This document shows positions 899 to 32,359 of a stretch of DNA of 32,359 nucleotides, one piece after another. This DNA comes from Candidatus Woesearchaeota archaeon (GTDB lineage Archaea; Nanobdellota; Nanobdellia; Pacearchaeales; GW2011-AR1). Position 1 is the stretch's first letter; each line of letters begins with the position of its first letter. Where the stretch lies: the NCBI GenBank assembly GCA_964468545.1, contig CAYXTT010000002.1:1-32359 (forward strand), given 5' to 3'. The position numbers and the translations under genes are program-made. The notes beneath the pieces are model-generated. The model ran no database searches and was not told the origin of the DNA. It saw only the letters and a program-made list of their open reading frames with translations.

Positions 899-3274
899 AT
901 GAACTTCAAAGACATAAAAAACTGGAGCCCAGAAATAGAAAACCAAATAACATCTAATTGGAAAAACAAAGAACTCTTCGCCTTCAACCCAAAAACAAAA
1001 AAGAAAATCTACTCAATCGACACACCACCTCCCTACGTCAACACACCAATCCACATGGGTCACGCCGTCACATACTGCTTCATGGATTTCTTCGCCCGAT
1101 ACCGACGAATGAAAGGATTCGAAGTTCTTTTCCCACTCGGTCTCGACCGAAACGGACTCCCAATCGAAATGGCAACCGAAAAAAAATTCAAAACATCACC
1201 ATTCAAAGTCGGCAGAAAAAAATTCATGGAATTATGCGAGCAACTCCTAAGCGAAGCCTCAGCCGAATCAATCGACTCATTCGCAAAACTCGGAATTTCA
1301 TTCTCATCCTACAAAGACAACGGAAAAATCGGGGCAATCTACAACACCGACTCCCCAGAATACCGAACATTAACCCAAACAACATTCGTCGAACTCTTCA
1401 AAAAAGGACTAATCTATGAAGACACAAGAATTAATAATTGGGACCCAAAACTCCAAACAACAATCGCCGACTCCGAAATCGAATACGAAGAAATCCCATC
1501 CACATTCAACAATATAAAATGGAAAGTCAAAGAAACGGACGAAGAAATAATGATCGGCACGACAAGACCAGAATTAATCGCAACCTGCGGGATGGTAATC
1601 TTCAACCCAGACGACAAAAGATACAAAAACCTCGACGGCAAAACAGCGATTTCTCCAATCTTTAACGAAGAAATTCTAATCAGGGCGCACCCACTCGCAC
1701 AAATTGACAAAGGCACAGGGTTAGCAATGATGTGCTCAGCAGGCGACTTGTCAGACATTCAATTTTTCCGCGAGATGAATTTAACCCCACGAATCGCAAT
1801 CAACCAAGACGGGCGAATGAACGAAAAAGCCGGAATTCTCAATGGACTAAAAGTGAAAGAAGCACGAGAAAAAATAATAGAACTAATTAAAGAAAAAAAC
1901 CTATTAGTAAAACAGGAAAAAATAACTCACCGAACTCCAATCTCCGAACGCTCGAAAGCCGAAATCGAATTCATCGAAATGCCGGAATTTTATCTAAAAC
2001 AATTAAACATTAAAAAAGAAATAAAAGCAATGGCAAACAAAATAAATTTCTACCCAAAAACTTCAAAAAAAATCCTCGACGATTGGATAGATTCGATATC
2101 AATCGATTGGCCAATTTCCAGACGTCGATATTACGCGACACCAATACCTTTATGGTATTCAGAAAATTTAATCGCAATAGCACCAGAAAAAACTTACACA
2201 GAACCATGGAAACAAGACCCACCAAAAGAATCCGAAGTAATAGATGCCAAAACAAAAAAAATATTAGGAATAGTTACAAACTTTCCCAAAAATAAATGGA
2301 TAGGTGAAACAAGAGTTCTCGACACTTGGTTCGATTCATCAATATCAGAACTTAACATGCTCAAATACAAATCCGACGACACATTCTTCGAAAAATCATA
2401 TCCAGCGACGCTGAGACCACAAGGAAAGGAAATCGTTCGAACCTGGCTTTACTACACAATTCTCCGTGGCTTCCTCGAAACAGACAAACCGTGCTTCAAA
2501 GATGTCTGGATTCATCAGCATATTCTCGACGGCAATGGACGAAAAATGTCAAAATCTTTGGGCAACGTGATAGACCCACAACAAATTCTAAAAGAAGATG
2601 GAGCCGAAGCCCTAAGATTATGGGCAGCAACCGAAGGCGACTTATCAAAAGGAGATTTTGTTTGCTCAAGAGAGAAAATAAAAGCCGAAAATAAATCCCT
2701 AAACAAATTATTAAACATTTCAAAATTCGTGATGCTATTCGACAAGCCAAAAACGAAACCAGCATTAACAGCGACGGACAAATTATTCATCGACCACGTC
2801 GAAAATTTAACAGAAGAAATCGACAAGTCCTACGAAAAATACGACTTCAACAATCCAGCGCAACAACTAAGAAATTTTCTCTGGAACACATTCGCATCAA
2901 ACTATATAGAACTCGTAAAAAACCGCGCCTACAACGAAAACAAAAGCTTCACAGCCGACGAATCAGCCTCGGCAAAATACACGCTTCATTTCATTCTCGA
3001 ACGACTCCTAACCCTCCTCTGCCCAATCATACCACAAATCACGGCGCTAATCGCAAAAGAAAAAAACATCGACCTTCTAAAATCCAAATGGCCAGAAATA
3101 AAACCAACAACTAATAACCAACAACTAATAACCAAATTAATAAATTTCAATAGCCAAATCTGGAAAACAAAAAAAGAAAAAAACATCTCTCTTCGAAACC
3201 CAATAGACGGAATCAAAATCCCAAAAGAACTAATCTCATTCGAAAAAGACTTAAAAGCCTGCCATAATATTTAA
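899..3274 (+). CDS. valS: Valyl-tRNA synthetase (class I aaRS)
   Basis: IDTPPPYVNTPIHMGHA (HIGH-type), GLDRNGLPIE, DTWFDSS and KMSKSLGN. The 791-aa length and N-terminal signature fit the archaeal ValRS type rather than LeuRS or IleRS. Confidence 0.8.
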   Translation: MNFKDIKNWSPEIENQITSNWKNKELFAFNPKTKKKIYSIDTPPPYVNTPIHMGHAVTYCFMDFFARYRRMKGFEVLFPLGLDRNGLPIEMATEKKFKTSPFKVGRKKFMELCEQLLSEASAESIDSFAKLGISFSSYKDNGKIGAIYNTDSPEYRTLTQTTFVELFKKGLIYEDTRINNWDPKLQTTIADSEIEYEEIPSTFNNIKWKVKETDEEIMIGTTRPELIATCGMVIFNPDDKRYKNLDGKTAISPIFNEEILIRAHPLAQIDKGTGLAMMCSAGDLSDIQFFREMNLTPRIAINQDGRMNEKAGILNGLKVKEAREKIIELIKEKNLLVKQEKITHRTPISERSKAEIEFIEMPEFYLKQLNIKKEIKAMANKINFYPKTSKKILDDWIDSISIDWPISRRRYYATPIPLWYSENLIAIAPEKTYTEPWKQDPPKESEVIDAKTKKILGIVTNFPKNKWIGETRVLDTWFDSSISELNMLKYKSDDTFFEKSYPATLRPQGKEIVRTWLYYTILRGFLETDKPCFKDVWIHQHILDGNGRKMSKSLGNVIDPQQILKEDGAEALRLWAATEGDLSKGDFVCSREKIKAENKSLNKLLNISKFVMLFDKPKTKPALTATDKLFIDHVENLTEEIDKSYEKYDFNNPAQQLRNFLWNTFASNYIELVKNRAYNENKSFTADESASAKYTLHFILERLLTLLCPIIPQITALIAKEKNIDLLKSKWPEIKPTTNNQQLITKLINFNSQIWKTKKEKNISLRNPIDGIKIPKELISFEKDLKACHNI

Positions 3275-3328: not shown

Positions 3329-4042
3329 ATGACAGAACTAGAAGTACACATCAAACCAATAGGAGAACTAGGTGTAACTCAAGCAGACTCATTTATATAC
3401 CAAAGAGTAAAAGATTTTCTACTCGGAAGAATGGGAGGAAGAAATTCGGCAGGGTACAAGACAATTATGAACAGCGGATTCGATATACAAAACGCCACAG
3501 GCTCAAGTTTACCATTTATAATAGCGGCAACAGAACTACTGGAAGAAACAAATGTTGCAACGATATTATCACTTGAAGATATAATAAAAATAATCACTCA
3601 CGGAAAAGCCAATGGCAAAAATCACTTCAAAGGAATATATGTCGATACAAACGAAGCAATACTTTATTTAAACGACAACTCCTCATTATCACTTAATTTA
3701 GCAGAGATAGCAAGAAATCAAAATAATACACCTTACGACGCAGAAAACCCAGCAAGATTTACCGGATTAAGAGTAGACAAAGCCGACAACAAAGAAGGAT
3801 ATAGGCTAATAGAAACATCAAAAACACAAATAATCACAGATCCGAGATTCTCTTATTCAAACAATGAGCAAGAAATAGATTTTAATGGAACCCCCATTAA
3901 AGTTTTCACAAAAAAAACTGGCTCGTCGAGGCTTTACGCGTACGAGGACGGGCTGTACGCCGGGGACGGCGTTCCCGCGGATTCGAGCGGCGTTGGTCGC
4001 GTGGGGTTGGTTCACGCCGAAGGCGTCGGTTCGAAAAATTAG
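3329..4042 (+). CDS. DGR variable (target) protein 1, VR at the extreme C-terminus
   Basis: 237-aa ORF with no obvious signal peptide. The last ~40 codons (GSSRLYAYEDGLYAGDGVPADSSGVGRVGLV...) are encoded by a GC-rich island repeated near the RT. Paralogous to CDS 31321..32160 (GSSLPFIIAA vs GSNLPFNVLM; G-x-SR-[LV]-Y). Confidence 0.75.
   Translation: MTELEVHIKPIGELGVTQADSFIYQRVKDFLLGRMGGRNSAGYKTIMNSGFDIQNATGSSLPFIIAATELLEETNVATILSLEDIIKIITHGKANGKNHFKGIYVDTNEAILYLNDNSSLSLNLAEIARNQNNTPYDAENPARFTGLRVDKADNKEGYRLIETSKTQIITDPRFSYSNNEQEIDFNGTPIKVFTKKTGSSRLYAYEDGLYAGDGVPADSSGVGRVGLVHAEGVGSKN
3922..4004 (+). repeat. DGR variable repeat VR1
   Basis: Aligns without gaps to 4235-4317. By hand count, 64 of 82 positions are identical over 3923-4004. 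Confidence 0.8.
4014..4026 (+). other. GC-rich hairpin just 3' of VR1 (candidate DGR target-recognition hairpin)
   Basis: ACGCC-gaa-GGCGT, starting 10 nt after the last TR-homologous base and still inside the CDS. Confidence 0.45.
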
Positions 4043-4100
4043 ATTAATATATATTTTAGAATATAATAATAACTAAAAGTCCAAAACTCTTCAAAAGATT

Positions 4101-4117
4101 CCTAGCTTGGAGCTAGG
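4101..4117 (+). other. Conserved stem-loop downstream of target gene 1
   Basis: CCTAGCT-tgg-AGCTAGG. The counterpart in cassette 2 (32185-32204, CTAACC-ttggaact-GGTTAG) keeps the ATTC...TTGGA.CT...TAGGC context but has different stem bases. Confidence 0.55.
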
Positions 4118-4234
4118 CCACACGCCTCTTTATTAGAACTCTTGAATGAGTCAGTAAAATTCAATGGCGACAACAAGTAATTGAAAATTATGAATCTTGA
4201 AGCCATGGTGGCAATTGGTAAAGAGACTATCACT

Positions 4235-4317
4235 ATCGTCGGGGCTTTACGCGGGCGAGTTCGGGCTTGTCGCCGGGTGCGGCGTTCCCGCGAATTCGAA
4301 CGACAATGGTCAAATGG
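4235..4317 (+). repeat. DGR template repeat TR1 (RT-proximal copy)
   Basis: Non-coding: it has no start codon in the VR-equivalent frame, which closes with TAG at 4320. Codons AAT, AAC, GAC, AAT, CAA and ATG at 4293-4316 correspond to VR1 GAT, AGC, GGC, GTT, CGC and GTG. All 8 mismatches there are at TR adenines. The repeat ends 16 nt before the RT ATG. Confidence 0.75.
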
Positions 4318-4331
4318 CCTAGCCAACTAGG
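4318..4331 (+). other. Stem-loop between TR1 and the RT start
   Basis: CCTAG-ccaa-CTAGG. In addition, 4316-4323 (ggcctagc) is the reverse complement of 4112-4119 (gctaggcc), so an 8-bp long-range helix could bracket the TR-containing RNA. Confidence 0.4.
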
Positions 4332-4333
4332 AA

Positions 4334-5350
4334 ATGAAAACTCACAAGAACATCTACTATAAAATCTACAAATGGGAAAACCTTCTTCTCGCCTTCTTGA
4401 AGGCGAGAAGAAGAAAATCAAAAAGAAAAGACGTAAAAGAATTCGAAGAAAACCTGATAGAAAACCTACAAGACTTACAACTCGAGCTAATGGACTCAAA
4501 CATACAAACCAAGACCACTCAAAACATTTATTCTACGAGATCCAAAAACCCGTAAAATATCCAAATCACATTTCAGGGACAGAATAATTCACCACACCCT
4601 TTGTAACATAATCGAACCAATCTTCGACAAAATCTTTATTTATGATAATTGTGCAGGAAGAAAAAACAAAGGAACATCATTCGCATTAAGAAGATTTAAG
4701 AAATTTCAAATTAAAACAACGAAGAATCTAACTTCAAGTAGTTATTGTCTAAAAGCCGATATAAAACATTACTTTGAAGAAGTCAGTCATGAAATTTTAA
4801 TTAACATTATTAAAAGAAAAATAAAAGACAAAATTGCAATACAACTAATAGTAAAGATATTAAAAAATTACCACAACAAAGAAAATGGTATGCCACTAGG
4901 AAGCTTAACAAGTCAACTCTTCACAAGTATTTATCTCAATAAACTAGATTATTTTGTTAAACATCAATTAAAAGAAAAGTACTATATAAGATACGTCGAC
5001 GATTTCCTCATATTAAATTGCTCAAGATTTAAGTTAGCATTCCTAAAAATAAAATAAAAAAATTTCTAAAAAACAATTTAAAATTAGAACTTCACAAAAG
5101 CAAATCAAAAATTATATCATTATCAAAAGTAGTAGACTTCGTAGGATTCAGAAACTACTACCACTTTAAGTTACTAAGACAAAGAAGTATAAGGGGTATG
5201 AAAAGAAAAATACAACTATTCCACAACAATCACATTCCTACAAGCGAAATCTCAGAAATATTTCAAGGATGGCAAGCACATGCAGAAATTGCCAACACAT
5301 ATAATCTAAGAGAGTGCCTAACCCAAACTTTAAAACTACCCCTTCTCTAA
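4334..5350 (+). CDS. DGR reverse transcriptase whose reading frame changes twice (possible pseudogene, assembly indels or recoding)
   Basis: Three collinear pieces. The first runs from 4334 to about 4499 in frame 2 (MKTHKNIYYKIYKWENLLLAFLKARRRKSKRKDVKEFEENLIENLQDLQLEL...). The second covers 4500-5054 in frame 0 (YKPRPLKTFILRDPKTRKISKSHFRDRIIHHTL...GMPLGSLTSQLFTSIYLNKLDYF...YIRYVDDFLIL). The third runs from about 5054-5057 to 5350, back in frame 2 (KKFLKNNLKLELHKSKSKII...VDFVGFRNYY...GWQAHAEIANTYNLR). It has an LGxxxSQ motif 4 and a YVDD catalytic motif. Confidence 0.85.
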
Positions 5351-5357
5351 TATCAAC

Positions 5358-5369
5358 ATGACAACAATA
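5358..5369 (+). repeat. Right copy of the 12-nt direct repeat flanking DGR cassette 1
   Basis: atgacaacaata is identical to 3282-3293, at an offset of 2076 nt. Confidence 0.5.
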
Positions 5370-5400
5370 AACAAAATAGCAAAGCCGAACAATCCGCACT

Positions 5401-5428
5401 AATAACTAATAACTAAAAACTAAAAACT
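5401..5428 (+). repeat. Heptamer tandem repeat immediately upstream of aRF1
   Basis: aataact x2 (5401-5414), then aaaaact x2 (5415-5428), then aac and the ATG at 5432. Confidence 0.7.
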
Positions 5429-5431
5429 AAC

Positions 5432-6523
5432 ATGGACGAAACACAAAAATTTGAACTCGAAACTTTAGTTGAAGAACTCGAAGGTTACCGAGGACGACAC
5501 ACAGAACTAATCACAGTCATGGTTCCAGCCGGAGCAACGCTAACCCAAACAACAAAACAACTCGAGGACGAAAAAGGAACCGCGACAAACATTAAGTCAG
5601 CAGGCACACGAAAAAATGTAATCAATGCGTTAGAACGAGCAACCCGAAAATTAAAAGAAATAGAAAGAACCCCGCAAAACGGACTCGCAGTTTTCTCTGG
5701 CAATGTAATTAAAAACGGAAAAGAATCTCTCGAGGTTTGGGCAATCGAACCACCAAAAAAACTCAAGGTAAAAATTTACCGATGCGACCAAACATTTGTT
5801 CTCGAACCGCTAAAAGAAATGCTCGAGACAGAAGAAGTTTATGGACTTTTAATTATTGAACGAAATGAAGCCTCAATTGGAATTCTCGACGGCAAAAATA
5901 TAAAACTTCTGCAAAACATGACCTCCGGAATCCCAGGCAAAACACGAGCCGGCGGGCAATCATCTCAAAGATTCGCACGAATCAGAGAATCAATGGCAAA
6001 AGAATTTTTCAAGCGAGTGGCCGAAGCGGTAAAAAAACATTTTTGGGACAATAAAAAATTAAAAGGAATATTAGTCGGCGGACCAATCCCGACAAAAGAC
6101 GAATTTCTCGATCAAGGACAACTCGTAACAGCACTCAAGGAAAAAGTAATCGCGGTAAAAGATTTGGGCGGCACCGGAATACACGGACTCGAAGAACTCG
6201 TCGAACTTTGTCAGGATGTTTTATCCGAACAAGAAATTACAAAACAAAGACAGATTTTAGACATCTTTTTTGAAAAACTTGCAAAAGAACCAAATAAAGT
6301 TTCATATGGCGAAGCCGAAGTCGAAGACCGATTAAACCGAGGTGCAGTCGAAAAATTGATCATATCAAAATCACTCCCAAAAGAAAAAATCAAATTCCTT
6401 GAAAAACTCGCACAAGCATCGTCGTCGGAAATTCATCTCGTTACAAAAGAAACATCAGAAGGAGTTCAATTCGACAATCTCGGCGGGACGGGTGCAATTC
6501 TCAGATTCGAAATCCACGATTAA
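5432..6523 (+). CDS. prf1: Peptide chain release factor aRF1
   Basis: NIKS (TATNIKSAG) and GGQ (RAGGQSSQRF) motifs in a 363-aa ORF. Confidence 0.95.
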   Translation: MDETQKFELETLVEELEGYRGRHTELITVMVPAGATLTQTTKQLEDEKGTATNIKSAGTRKNVINALERATRKLKEIERTPQNGLAVFSGNVIKNGKESLEVWAIEPPKKLKVKIYRCDQTFVLEPLKEMLETEEVYGLLIIERNEASIGILDGKNIKLLQNMTSGIPGKTRAGGQSSQRFARIRESMAKEFFKRVAEAVKKHFWDNKKLKGILVGGPIPTKDEFLDQGQLVTALKEKVIAVKDLGGTGIHGLEELVELCQDVLSEQEITKQRQILDIFFEKLAKEPNKVSYGEAEVEDRLNRGAVEKLIISKSLPKEKIKFLEKLAQASSSEIHLVTKETSEGVQFDNLGGTGAILRFEIHD

Positions 6524-22666: not shown

Positions 22667-23035
22667 TCATTCAAATCCATTCGCCCTAAGGACAATTGAA
22701 AGCTCCCTCGGAGTAACATTTATTCCCTGACAAGAAGATACACTAACTGTTTTTTTATAAGACACATCAGACAAAAGTAGTTCACCCCCCCCCCTAATAC
22801 CAACATAATAAACAACTTTATCCTTATCTTGAAAAATATTACCGCCCATCAAAAAAGAAGAAAGTAATTCTTCAATATTATCATTTTTATTTCTCATAAA
22901 CAAACCCTTATAAGTTCCACTATTAATGGGTCCTTCAGATTTATACTCCCTCACCCAAACTTTATTAAACATAATAATAACACAAACAATTCCTTTATAA
23001 AAATTTATATACTCAAAAATACAACAATCAATCAA
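22667..23035 (-). CDS. Hypothetical protein (start uncertain)
   Basis: 122-aa ORF. The internal MFNKVWV is an alternative start. No recognisable domain. Contains a G10 run on its coding strand. Confidence 0.4.
   Translation of the reverse strand: MIDCCIFEYINFYKGIVCVIIMFNKVWVREYKSEGPINSGTYKGLFMRNKNDNIEELLSSFLMGGNIFQDKDKVVYYVGIRGGGELLLSDVSYKKTVSVSSCQGINVTPRELSIVLRANGFE
22785..22794. repeat. C10 (G10 on the coding strand) homopolymer inside CDS 22667..23035
   Basis: ttcacccccccccctaatac encodes the GGG in GIRGGGEL. It stands out in an AT-rich genome. Confidence 0.8.
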
Positions 23036-29863: not shown

Positions 29864-31261
29864 ATGAAAAAATTTTATGTAACGACGCCAATTTATTACC
29901 CAAACGACATCCCACACATCGGACACGCATACACGACAATAGCAGCAGACATCCTCGCACGATGGCACAAACTCAAAGGCGAAGAAGTATTTTTCTTAAC
30001 TGGAACCGACGACCACGGAAAAAAAATCGCCGAAGCCGCAAAAAAAACAGGCAAGTCGCCAAAGGAATTCACCGACGACCTAATCCCAAAATTCAAAGAC
30101 GCATGGAAAAAACTAAACATTAACTACGATAGATTCATAAGAACAACTGACCCCGACCACGAAAAAATCGTCCAGGAAATCTTGCAAAAAGTTTATGACA
30201 ATGGCGACATTTACAAAGGAGAATACGAAGGATTTTATTGCACCGGTTGCGAAGCATACTACACCGAAAAAGACCTCGACAACGGCAACTGCCCAATTCA
30301 CAAAACAAAAATAGAAAAACTAAAAGAAGAAACCTACTTCTTCAAACTTTCAAAATATCAAGACAAACTTCTAGACTTCTATAAACGAAACCCGAACTTC
30401 ATTTTACCAAAACACCGAAGACAAGAAATCATCAACAGAGTAAAAGAAGGATTAAAAGATTTGAGCATTTCAAGAAACTCATTTAACTGGGGAATAAAAC
30501 TTCCATTTGACAAATTGCATATAACATACGTTTGGTTCGACGCACTTTTCAATTATTATTCCGCAACAAGACAAAAAGGAAAAGAAAAATTCTGGCCCGC
30601 CGATATTAATCTAATTGGCAAGGACATACTCTGGTTCCACACGGTATACTGGCCCGCATTTTTGATGTCAGCCGGAATCAAACCGCCAAAGTCGGTATAC
30701 GCACACGGATGGTGGACATTTAATAAAGAAAAAATTTCAAAATCACGCGGAAAAGTAATCAATGTCGACGAATTAATAAAAATTGCCGGAGTCGATTCGG
30801 CAAGATATTTTCTCTTCAGAGAATCATCATTCGGCGAAGACGGAGACTTCTCCGAAACAGCATTGATAAATCGCCACAACAACGAACTCGCAAACAAGCT
30901 CGGCAATCTCATCTCACGGACTTCAGCTCTCGTCGAGAAATACGGGATTGAAGAAAATCCAAACACATTATTAAAAAAACCAATCCTAAAAAAAATAGAA
31001 AACTACATGGACAAATTTGAACTCGACAAAGCTCTAAGTGAAATTTTCGCGTTAATAGATATTTGCAACGAATTTATTCAAACAAAAAAACCTTGGGAAA
31101 CCCACGACAAAAAAGTCCTCTATCAATTAGTCGACTCAATCCGCCAAATCGCAAAACTCCTATCGCCATTCATTCCCGAGTCCGCAGAAAAAATTTCAAA
31201 GATTTACAAAACCGACAAAATTATAAAATCCCCAATACTATTTAATAAAATAATTCAGTAG
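29864..31261 (+). CDS. metG: Methionyl-tRNA synthetase (short form)
   Basis: PIYYPNDIPHIGHAYT (HIGH), Zn knuckle CTGCEAYY...CPIH, and KISKSRG (KMSKS). Confidence 0.9.
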   Translation: MKKFYVTTPIYYPNDIPHIGHAYTTIAADILARWHKLKGEEVFFLTGTDDHGKKIAEAAKKTGKSPKEFTDDLIPKFKDAWKKLNINYDRFIRTTDPDHEKIVQEILQKVYDNGDIYKGEYEGFYCTGCEAYYTEKDLDNGNCPIHKTKIEKLKEETYFFKLSKYQDKLLDFYKRNPNFILPKHRRQEIINRVKEGLKDLSISRNSFNWGIKLPFDKLHITYVWFDALFNYYSATRQKGKEKFWPADINLIGKDILWFHTVYWPAFLMSAGIKPPKSVYAHGWWTFNKEKISKSRGKVINVDELIKIAGVDSARYFLFRESSFGEDGDFSETALINRHNNELANKLGNLISRTSALVEKYGIEENPNTLLKKPILKKIENYMDKFELDKALSEIFALIDICNEFIQTKKPWETHDKKVLYQLVDSIRQIAKLLSPFIPESAEKISKIYKTDKIIKSPILFNKIIQ

Positions 31262-31320: not shown

Positions 31321-32160
31321 ATGATAAAATTAGGAACAGCGCCAATAATTCAAGTGCCAGAACAAGAATTTGGTTTCTATAGTCGTCCGGATTTAGCAGG
31401 CAAAACTTTTTTAGAAGCATTTGAAAAAGAATTGAGACAATACAATCCAGAAACTCTAAAAAAAGCATTAAACGGAGAATTTTACTTCGACAGCGACGGA
31501 ACATTAAGAGGTTCAAATTTACCTTTTAATGTTTTAATGAATCATAAAAATCTTTTCCCCGAAGACGAACATCCTTTATCAATCGCAGAATTCGGTCAAG
31601 CATTTAACAAAAACCCAGAAGCTTCCAAAGAAATATACGCAGACACCGGGATTATAGCAAGGACACCAAACGATTATTTTTCAGAAAATATAATTAAACA
31701 AATAAAAGCAAGAGGAAAAACACCAACTCCAGAAGAACCAATAGTAATATCCAACACAGACCTAATTCCAATACAAAATAAAGAGTCCCGTTGCGGATTT
31801 GTTTACAAAATAAAAGACAGAGACGGCGAAGAATTAATAGTAGCCCCAGCATATGGAACAGCAGAAACCATAACAAAATTCACAATCTACGACGAAAGAG
31901 GAATTCCTATCCCATCCGAAAGAGGAGATAAACAAATCTGGAAAGGAGATTCTGGCGTGTCGAGAGTTTATTCTAGCTACGGCCAGGTCGTGGGCTCGGG
32001 CGACGAGCGCCTGGCGAGTTCAGGCGGCGGCGGCAGGGTAGTGGTGGGGAAGGCCAATGTTCCGCAAAATATTGTTGAAATAGAAAAGTTAGTTCAGCAA
32101 GAAGAAAAAAGAATAAAAATGGCAAAAAAAGATTTAGAAAAAAGAGTAGCAAAGTTATAA
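31321..32160 (+). CDS. DGR variable (target) protein 2, with the VR near the C-terminus followed by a coiled-coil tail
   Basis: 279-aa paralog of CDS 3329..4042. The GC-rich segment GVSRVYSSYGQVVGSGDERLASSGGGGRVVVG is repeated downstream at 32305 onward. Confidence 0.7.
   Translation: MIKLGTAPIIQVPEQEFGFYSRPDLAGKTFLEAFEKELRQYNPETLKKALNGEFYFDSDGTLRGSNLPFNVLMNHKNLFPEDEHPLSIAEFGQAFNKNPEASKEIYADTGIIARTPNDYFSENIIKQIKARGKTPTPEEPIVISNTDLIPIQNKESRCGFVYKIKDRDGEELIVAPAYGTAETITKFTIYDERGIPIPSERGDKQIWKGDSGVSRVYSSYGQVVGSGDERLASSGGGGRVVVGKANVPQNIVEIEKLVQQEEKRIKMAKKDLEKRVAKL
31954..32049 (+). repeat. DGR variable repeat VR2 (3' limit inferred from the GC-rich island)
   Basis: 31954-32008 aligns without gaps to 32305-32359, with 48 of 55 positions identical by hand count. 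The rest of the TR lies beyond the window. Confidence 0.7.
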
Positions 32161-32304: not shown

Positions 32305-32359
32305 GGCGTGTCGAGAGTTTTTTCTGCCTACGACCAGGTCGCGGACTCGGGCAACGAGC
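32305..32359 (+). repeat. DGR template repeat TR2 (partial, truncated by the window edge)
   Basis: GAC, GAC and AAC codons here correspond to GGC, GGC and GAC in VR2 (A to G at 32333, 32345 and 32353). It is preceded by an AT-rich leader homologous to the one upstream of TR1. Confidence 0.6.

Follow-up and report, generated by a model that had tools for sequence, protein, structure and literature searches.

A 32,359-nt stretch of DNA from Candidatus Woesearchaeota archaeon (GCA_964468545.1, contig CAYXTT010000002.1; hereafter the window, with coordinates given on its forward strand) carries at positions 4334-5350 what is very probably a recently inactivated gene for the reverse transcriptase (RT) of a diversity-generating retroelement (DGR). 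This chromosomal gene, RT1, is broken by two point indels and would belong to a decaying cassette of a DPANN (Woesearchaeota-like) host. The cassette, DGR1, comprises a target gene with a variable repeat (VR1), a spacer, a template repeat (TR1) and RT1. We observe directly the two lesions, their presence in every assembly examined, the intactness of the orthologous genes, the depletion of adenines in TR1 and the invariance of VR1. From these we infer the loss of RT1 function, its recency and the order of events.

Two single-base indels in a DGR reverse transcriptase gene

Three-frame translation of 4334-5420 shows an ATG at 4334 that opens a 73-aa reading frame in frame 2, ending at a TAA (4553-4555). 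Frame 0 is open over 4491-5054 and closes at another TAA (5055-5057); its earliest start codon is the ATG at 4890. Frame 2 then reopens over 5033-5350, with its stop codon at 5348-5350. The list of open reading frames (ORFs) holds none of 60 aa or more between 4600 and 5430. When joined in the order frame 2, frame 0, frame 2, the pieces form a collinear DGR-type RT of 338 aa, spanning 1017 nt (338 codons plus stop). By translation and alignment, the first plus-strand segment (4334-4492, frame 2) encodes residues 1-53 and ends in ...ELM; the second (4494-5049, frame 0) encodes residues 54 to about 238, including the catalytic motifs ADIKHYF, GMPLGSLTSQ and YVDD; the third (5048-5350, frame 2) encodes a thumb-like C-terminus. 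A preliminary description of this DNA had proposed such a collinear RT split across frames 2, 0 and 2, over the same 1017 nt and with only the 73-aa ORF called, and both the translation and the homologs agree with it. It also gave the correct limits for frame 0, although it placed the first start codon of that frame at 4886 instead of 4890.

The joined product matches the Pfam family RVT_1 (E 1.5e-21) and has 5334 homologs at E<=1e-10, the top one being an intact protein of 339 aa with 81% identity. In the protein alignment with its nearest relatives RT1 is gap-free internally, the sole internal gaps corresponding to insertions in other sequences. Its nearest homologs are DPANN RTs that adjoin TR/VR pairs, and the repaired frame contains no in-frame stop. 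The motifs ADIKHYF, GMPLGSLTSQ and YVDD carried by the conceptual translation are what we take to be the motif 3, 4 and 5 signatures of DGR RTs, and both the motif 4 pattern [LIV]GxxxSQ and the YxDD catalytic box of the DGR clade are present. A chance origin of the RT1 homology is excluded.

A nucleotide alignment of RT1 with its closest ortholog (84% identity, same genomic position) reveals exactly two 1-nt indels in the coding region. Lesion 1 (4492-4493, plus strand; ortholog alignment column 293) is a one-base insertion, GG where the orthologs and RT2, a paralog in the same genome, have a single G, and it shifts the frame by +1. The window reads CTAATGGACTCAAACATAC and the ortholog TTAAT-GACAAAAACATAC, so that the additional G lies in ATG-G-ACT; RT2 reads ATGACTCAAACCTAC, and its sequence at the lesion site, ATGACTCAAACCTACAAACCA, equals that of the window without the additional G. 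Lesion 2 (5045-5049, plus strand; alignment column 846) is a deletion from A6 to A5, the window having CATTCCT-AAAAAT against CATTCCTAAAAAAT in the ortholog, and frame 0 stops at 5055-5057. Homologs read ELM-TQT-YKP(K/R)PL across the first site. The ELM of the window is read in frame 2 and TQTYKPRPL already in frame 0, so that the first junction must immediately follow the ATG at 4490-4492 and lies some 7-10 nt 5' of where it was first proposed (about 4499-4502). The second junction had been sought in the A-rich run at about 5045-5063; the region was right, and the site can now be narrowed to the first A run, A5 at 5045-5049. That the two shifts cancel, as also proposed, is confirmed by the signs of the indels, +1 and -1 base relative to the ortholog.

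Translation from the RT1 ATG would end after 73 residues, and all catalytic motifs would lie in a frame without an upstream start codon. Once the first lesion, whichever of the two it was, had killed RT1, the second would have been without effect; the opposite signs of the shifts would then be a coincidence.

The aRF1 protein encoded just downstream (5432-6523) is found, as an exact match, on 11 contigs; seven of those fetched (L009-L015) span the RT region. These seven belong to Illumina-type assemblies of at least six further samples: the ENA MEGAHIT (k141) assemblies ERZ27248895, -920, -937, -939 and -953 and the JGI assemblies 3300028191 and 3300028162. Over up to 12.5 kb they differ from the window by 1-13 substitutions and by no indel, and the 73-aa and 55-aa fragments of RT1 are called as ORFs in them as well. 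Because the population assemblies differ mutually in single-nucleotide polymorphisms (SNPs), in the allele of VR2 (the variable repeat of a second cassette, DGR2) and in a C9/C10 tract, they constitute independent data. The sister species (L001, about 84% nucleotide identity; metagenome-assembled genome (MAG) Candidatus Woesearchaeota archaeon SRP178699_co1_15) carries an intact RT of 339 aa in a matching gene order: a 791-aa class I aminoacyl-tRNA synthetase (aaRS), a 236-aa target, the RT and a 363-aa aRF1. Since this species was assembled from the same samples and has A6, it serves as an internal control against platform error. Both indels are also absent from RT2 and from a third ortholog, L025, in which the gene order is kept. 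None of the proteins among 5.8 billion cluster representatives is more than 81% identical to the repaired RT1, and hence no intact RT1 allele has ever been called. RT1 is probably an ordinary, well-documented kind of pseudogene: as in other unitary pseudogenes, its ORF is broken relative to intact orthologs in kept gene order, and both lesions occur in every population assembly examined.

A sequencing or assembly artefact, one of the options first entertained, would mean that the real genome lacks one base near 4493, has an additional A near 5045 and encodes RT1 in a single intact ORF. We consider this almost inconceivable. One of the two sites is admittedly a short homopolymer, A5, but lesion 1 is merely a GG dinucleotide, and the same two states recur without indels in seven more contigs that are independent by SNPs, VR2 alleles and tract length and that were produced by two pipelines. 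Furthermore, the sister species assembles with A6 from the same samples, and these very assemblies do resolve a genuine length polymorphism in a homopolymer, C9/C10 at 22785.

Template and variable repeats of DGR1 and DGR2

DGR1 starts with a target gene of 237 aa (3329-4042, plus strand), which has no Pfam family and is syntenic with the 236-aa target of L001. VR1 (3923-4004, plus strand; repeat family D6) lies within this ORF, at the 3' end of the coding gene as in other DGRs, and is in register with TR1 (4236-4317, plus strand). The spacer between the two repeats contains a 7-bp hairpin, CCTAGCT-TGG-AGCTAGG (4101-4117, plus strand), which is kept in the orthologs and occurs in DGR2 with changes on both arms. 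The spacer as a whole (4043-4235) is 93% identical to that of the sister species, as compared with about 82-83% in the aaRS, target and RT genes and 87% in aRF1.

DGRs are expected to show TR/VR mismatches confined to TR adenines. This is not what we find in the present TR1/VR1 pair: the two repeats are 80% identical, and of the 22 mismatches found over 88 nt only 9 coincide with TR adenines, versus 14 of 17 and 10 of 14 in the orthologous pairs. In the sister species and in L025 nearly every such mismatch is at an adenine. TR1 holds 13 adenines where the two orthologous TRs hold 25 and 27. It differs from the sister TR at 16 positions, 12 of them adenines (A to G in eight cases and A to T in four; binomial P 1.5e-4), and all 12 adenine changes fall in positions 7-50 (GGGGCTTTACGCGGGCGAGTTCGGGCTTGTCGCCGGGTGCGGCGTT). 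VR1 still has A at 5 positions where TR1 now has G or T, and when VR1 is compared with an ancestral-like TR, 16 of 21 differences are at adenines. The pair thus appears to have been canonical formerly, TR1 being the copy that changed since. Two substitutions relative to the sister, C30G and C75T, are common to TR1 and VR1 of the window, which indicates that TR-to-VR transfer still worked after the split from the sister species. Taken together, the comparison of the three TRs and the state of VR1 suggest that the change in the TR1 patch postdates the last full transfer into VR1 and that the patch has not been copied since. We found no third copy that could have donated the altered patch, either in the window or in population contigs of about 100 kb. 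The adenines in the 3' half of TR1 are still in place, and in that half VR1 departs from the template at adenines alone.

Replacement of the TR1 adenines is what one would expect if adenine mutagenesis had hit the template or if a diversified copy had converted it, and it suggests template mutagenesis or conversion as one route to the death of a DGR. We may tentatively hypothesize, while regarding this as somewhat improbable, that DGR1 disabled itself: positions 7-50 of TR1 would have been overwritten by an adenine-mutagenised copy of TR1, the element's own cDNA recombining into the template and not into the VR. Such an event, later than the last transfer into VR1, would have removed 12 of the 25 mutable adenines. 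Once its template was spoiled, the cassette would have had no further need of RT1, which may then have acquired its two indels. If true, DGR1 would be a natural example of an element that corrupts its own template, and would offer a hint that transfer in these archaeal DGRs can be patchy instead of 3'-anchored; the VR2 alleles likewise differ in their 5' half only.

DGR2 lies about 28 kb from DGR1. Its target gene (31321-32160, plus strand), identified as an ORF of 279 aa, carries VR2 at 31954-32036, found by repeat search together with TR2 (32305-32359, plus strand). TR2 is cut by the end of the window; longer population contigs continue with RT2, an intact protein of 339 aa that matches P0011 exactly and shares 64% identity with RT1. 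The window and all seven contigs have the same VR1 sequence. In the 6.6-kb DGR2 region, 7 of the 7-9 differences between assemblies are inside VR2. The two VR2 alleles present among samples differ at 7 sites within 40 nt, four of which are TR2 adenines; all these sites are in the 5' half of the repeat, the 3' halves being identical, and one allele has three non-adenine differences from TR2. This 5'-only difference mirrors the 5'-only patch in TR1. In the same samples, VR2 in the intact cassette is a hotspot of variation and VR1 in the broken cassette is frozen. One genome and one sample set may therefore offer a natural paired comparison between a dead DGR with a frozen VR and an intact DGR with a polymorphic VR.

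The spacers of DGR1 (4043-4235) and DGR2 (L017:12298-12446) have in common the hairpin, with arms CCTAGCT/AGCTAGG and CTAACC/GGTTAG, respectively, and the boxes TAAAATTCAAT and TTGAAGnnATGGTG. These common elements are probably cis-acting DGR RNA or DNA elements. In contig L021 (7230-7975), VR2 and TR2 are merged into one copy, with a 241-aa target directly before RT2, reflecting either a real deletion or an assembly collapse. Both cassettes are located directly 3' of class I aaRS genes, the 791-aa gene at 899-3274 preceding DGR1 (3329-5350) and a 465-aa gene at 29864-31261 preceding DGR2 (31321 onward). The aaRS-DGR1 arrangement is kept in the sister species and in L025.

Pairwise dN/dS relative to the sister species is 0.11 for the repaired RT1, 0.135 for the aaRS and 0.06 for aRF1. 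With L025 as outgroup, the ratio of nonsynonymous to synonymous changes (N:S) is 17:33 on the window branch and 19:34 on the sister branch. As N:S is not raised and the repaired frame has no stop, purifying selection would have acted on RT1 for almost its entire history, and its lesions would be of recent date. Pairwise and branch counts being uninformative beyond recency, we dropped dN/dS as a test of inactivation. At columns at least 95% conserved among 120 homologs, the window RT shows 6 deviations, the highest number among 121 sequences (median 1). Position 4645 (plus strand) is polymorphic in the population, with A (Asp104) in the window and G (Gly104) in all seven other assemblies; in the homolog alignment this column has D in 116, N in 3 and S in 2 of the 120 homologs plus the window. 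Both residue-104 alleles carry both frameshifts. The deviations at conserved columns and D104G may be weak signs of drift. About 2 of 6 SNP events fall in RT1, which represents 8% of the length; these are too few for a test against the flanks.

Divergence from the sister species is uneven along the locus. The target gene (3329-4042, compared with L001:4999-5709) has a dS of 0.26-0.31 and a dN/dS of 0.6-0.7, while dS is 0.63-0.75 in the flanking aaRS and aRF1 genes, 1.18 in the middle of the RT gene and 0.41 at its C-terminus. Recombination between cassettes might account for this pattern, as might nucleotide-level constraint.

Several observations weigh against a dead RT1. Sequence evolution alone, with branch N:S not raised, cannot separate a gene that has just died from one still translated. 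Partial 3' homing into VR1 could have taken place after the damage to TR1. VR comparisons rest on consensus assemblies, which limits what the invariance of VR1 can mean, and the DGR1 of the sister species, with its intact RT and clean TR/VR pair, also has an invariant VR across 8 assemblies; constancy of VR1 alone is weak evidence of inactivity. The lesions common to all assemblies examined, the intact orthologs, the adenine loss in TR1 and the frozen VR1 together support a decaying, inactive RT or fossil element, an option already raised in the preliminary description.

Simple-sequence tracts in related DPANN RT genes

A scan with the repaired RT1, using one genome per species, yielded 80 loci from DPANN MAGs. 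Eight of these have an RT that changes frame at a common point, at about residues 176-185 of the query, and the split coincides with (AG)n, (GA)n or (TC)n tracts of 15-29 nt or with G8-G9. In total, 20 of the 80 RT genes bear a tract: (AG)/(GA)/(TC) of 11-29 nt, G7-G11 or C12 (loci L045, L046, L054, L059, L061, L063, L072, L075, L080, L084, L087, L092, L093, L096, L100 and L102-L106). Nineteen of the 20 tracts are located in one loop 5' of GMPLGNLTSQ, and about half are in frame. We counted 18 tracts per 19.5 kb of loop sequence versus 15 per approximately 430 kb elsewhere in the loci, a density ratio of about 26. Locus L084 has an in-frame G10 (3704-3713; …LLSWGGGMAGFL…) between YVDD and LKLEL, at a position homologous to lesion 2 of the window (5045-5049). 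No tract matching the simple-sequence repeat pattern was found in RT1 or RT2.

Length variation at such a tract is seen in the population of P0051 (a 90%-identity cluster; L108-L115, from different groundwater samples), which has four (AG)n alleles (tract at L110:2046-2064). With tracts of 19 and 25 nt the RT is 350 and 352 aa long, respectively (on); with 17 nt it is split into 194 + 152 aa and with 21 nt truncated at 201 aa (both off). L108 and L110 differ over 2716 nt by one AG unit only. The (GA)13 tract of L106 was recovered on a single contig in a metagenome scan for length variants. From their sequences, the tract alleles look like phase-variable, slipped-strand on/off switching of DGR RTs. 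We found no report of simple-sequence tracts in DGR RTs in the searchable literature, which does not prove novelty. This finding may outweigh the dead RT1 in importance: if it is confirmed, stochastic on/off switching would govern targeted hypermutation itself.

Alternative explanations and known systems

Programmed recoding would have the ribosome shift by +1 near 4493 and by -1 near 5046-5054, or RNA polymerase slip, in order to produce full-length RT at a regulated low level. In its favor, the repaired frame is free of stops, the catalytic motifs are intact in the window allele and N:S is not raised. Furthermore, A_AAA is followed by a stop (AAA TAA, 5052-5057), where a -1 slip of a single tRNA would, judging from the sequence, yield a product of normal length. 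However, the first site (CUA AUG G ACU) lacks a shift-prone codon, has neither a rare nor a stop codon in the A site and leaves no option for re-pairing, and the second (CUA AAA AUA AAA UAA) is not an X XXY YYZ heptamer. The 65-91 nt 3' of each site have minimum free energies of -1.2 to -3.6 kcal/mol, with z-scores of -0.65 to +0.63 relative to shuffled sequences. Real programmed shifts are conserved in orthologs. When we compared orthologous RTs for the same frame changes, a check suggested in the preliminary description, none shared either shift: L001, L025, L026 and RT2 are all in a single frame at both sites. Each protein molecule would moreover require two independent rare events, and most assemblies carry D104G at a nearly invariant residue. 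With slippery motif, downstream structure and ortholog conservation all lacking, we regard programmed +1/-1 frameshifting, also among the earlier suggestions, as extremely unlikely. Known programmed frameshift genes include prfB (+1), dnaX (-1) and Saccharolobus fucA1 (-1 at A-AAA-AAT). RT1 resembles these in that one protein is spread over two reading frames, but has neither slippery motif, stimulator nor ortholog conservation and would need two shifts of opposite sign.

The tracts of related RT genes raise the further idea that the two indels are a slow form of the same on/off switching, a reversible off state with rare intact revertants. Tracts of (AG)n, (TC)n, poly-G or poly-C in 20 of 80 related genes, two on and two off alleles in one population and the L084 tract at the site homologous to lesion 2 all point in this direction. 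RT1 itself, however, has no such tract; GG and A5 mutate slowly, two separate reversions would be required, and length is constant at both sites in 8 assemblies while C9/C10 at 22785 varies in the same data. We judge reversibility very unlikely. Simple-sequence contingency loci are known from Neisseria, Haemophilus, Campylobacter and Helicobacter (PMC5084427, PMC4081817). There, as in RT1, a small indel in a run leads to loss of frame, and relatives of RT1 carry tracts with on/off length alleles; unlike at contingency loci, the lesions of RT1 are at GG and A5 and are invariant in the population. Somewhat easier to envisage, yet still unlikely, is a dead RT1 whose VR1 continues to be diversified by RT2 acting in trans on TR1 RNA. 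The preliminary description had invoked the RT of the second DGR in this role, and an intact RT2 does exist, 64% identical to RT1. The spacers of the two cassettes have the hairpin and several sequence boxes in common, and in the 3' half of TR1, which retains adenines, VR1 differs at adenines only. Rescue, although conceivable for the 3' half of the repeat, is nevertheless unsupported: VR1 is constant in all assemblies, whereas VR2 carries nearly all local variation in the same samples; the TR-to-RT junction sequences differ between cassettes; and VR1 lacks the non-adenine bases of the present TR1, from which it departs at 10 non-adenine positions, implying that full-length TR1-to-VR1 transfer has not occurred since TR1 changed.

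Apart from its lesions, the inactivated DGR1 looks like other DPANN DGRs, which were described by Paul et al. 2015 (PMC4372165) and surveyed by Wu et al. 2018 (PMC5758913) and Roux et al. 2021 (PMC8144416). It has an RT of about 339 aa with LGxxxSQ and YVDD, a TR immediately 5' of the RT, a chromosomal location and a small target gene carrying the VR at its 3' end, and its relatives are recorded as Woesearchaeota, Pacearchaeota and Nanoarchaeota. It differs from them in its RT ORF, broken by two indels, in the loss of half of the TR adenines and in TR/VR mismatches that are mostly non-adenine. DGRs of the Candidate Phyla Radiation (CPR) set, mainly from CPR bacteria and DPANN archaea, often show non-A mismatches (Wu et al. 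2018, PMC5758913); here, orthologs identify the TR as the copy that changed. We found no report of frameshifted DGR RTs in the searchable literature. RT1 suggests that a TR/VR pair and RT homology can lead to a non-functional element being labeled a DGR.

In the prototype DGR of Bordetella phage BPP-1 (Doulatov et al. 2004, Guo et al. 2011), TR RNA is reportedly converted into adenine-mutagenised cDNA that enters VR, a hairpin is said to lie 3' of VR, the IMH* element (initiation of mutagenic homing) is said to shield TR from homing, and an engineered swap of IMH* for IMH reportedly makes TR mutate. DGR1 follows the same TR-to-VR logic and also has a hairpin downstream of VR. TR1 resembles a natural form of the template damage caused by the IMH swap, except that the altered patch is in the 5' half and is not 3'-anchored.

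Some minor features of the window and of related loci may be mentioned. The RT of L025 (3484-4713) has no stop of its own and runs 70 codons into aRF1, giving a product of 409 aa that overlaps the 334-aa aRF1 call. The RT of L026 (195-1207) ends in unrelated GC-rich sequence, owing to a chimeric contig or a rearrangement. Within the population, a structural polymorphism is observed 5' of the DNA ligase gene (L017:371-2714 versus L019:846-2757): one assembly has a DDE transposase and a DUF3800 gene in this region, and others, like the window, have genes for shikimate dehydrogenase, NFACT-R and TBP. The C9/C10 tract is located at 22785-22794 of the window (C10, or G10 on the minus strand), in a small ORF on the minus strand (22667-23035) flanked by the TBP and DNA ligase genes; the tract reads C10 in the window, L022 and L023 and C9 in L017-L020, which makes this ORF a candidate phase-variable gene. 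Finally, strand composition is strongly asymmetric along the whole window: plus-strand genes have a GC skew of about -0.1 to -0.2 and minus-strand genes one of about -0.5, and AT skew is mostly positive; the plus strand is A+C-rich regardless of gene orientation, and the sign of the skew is constant over 32 kb.

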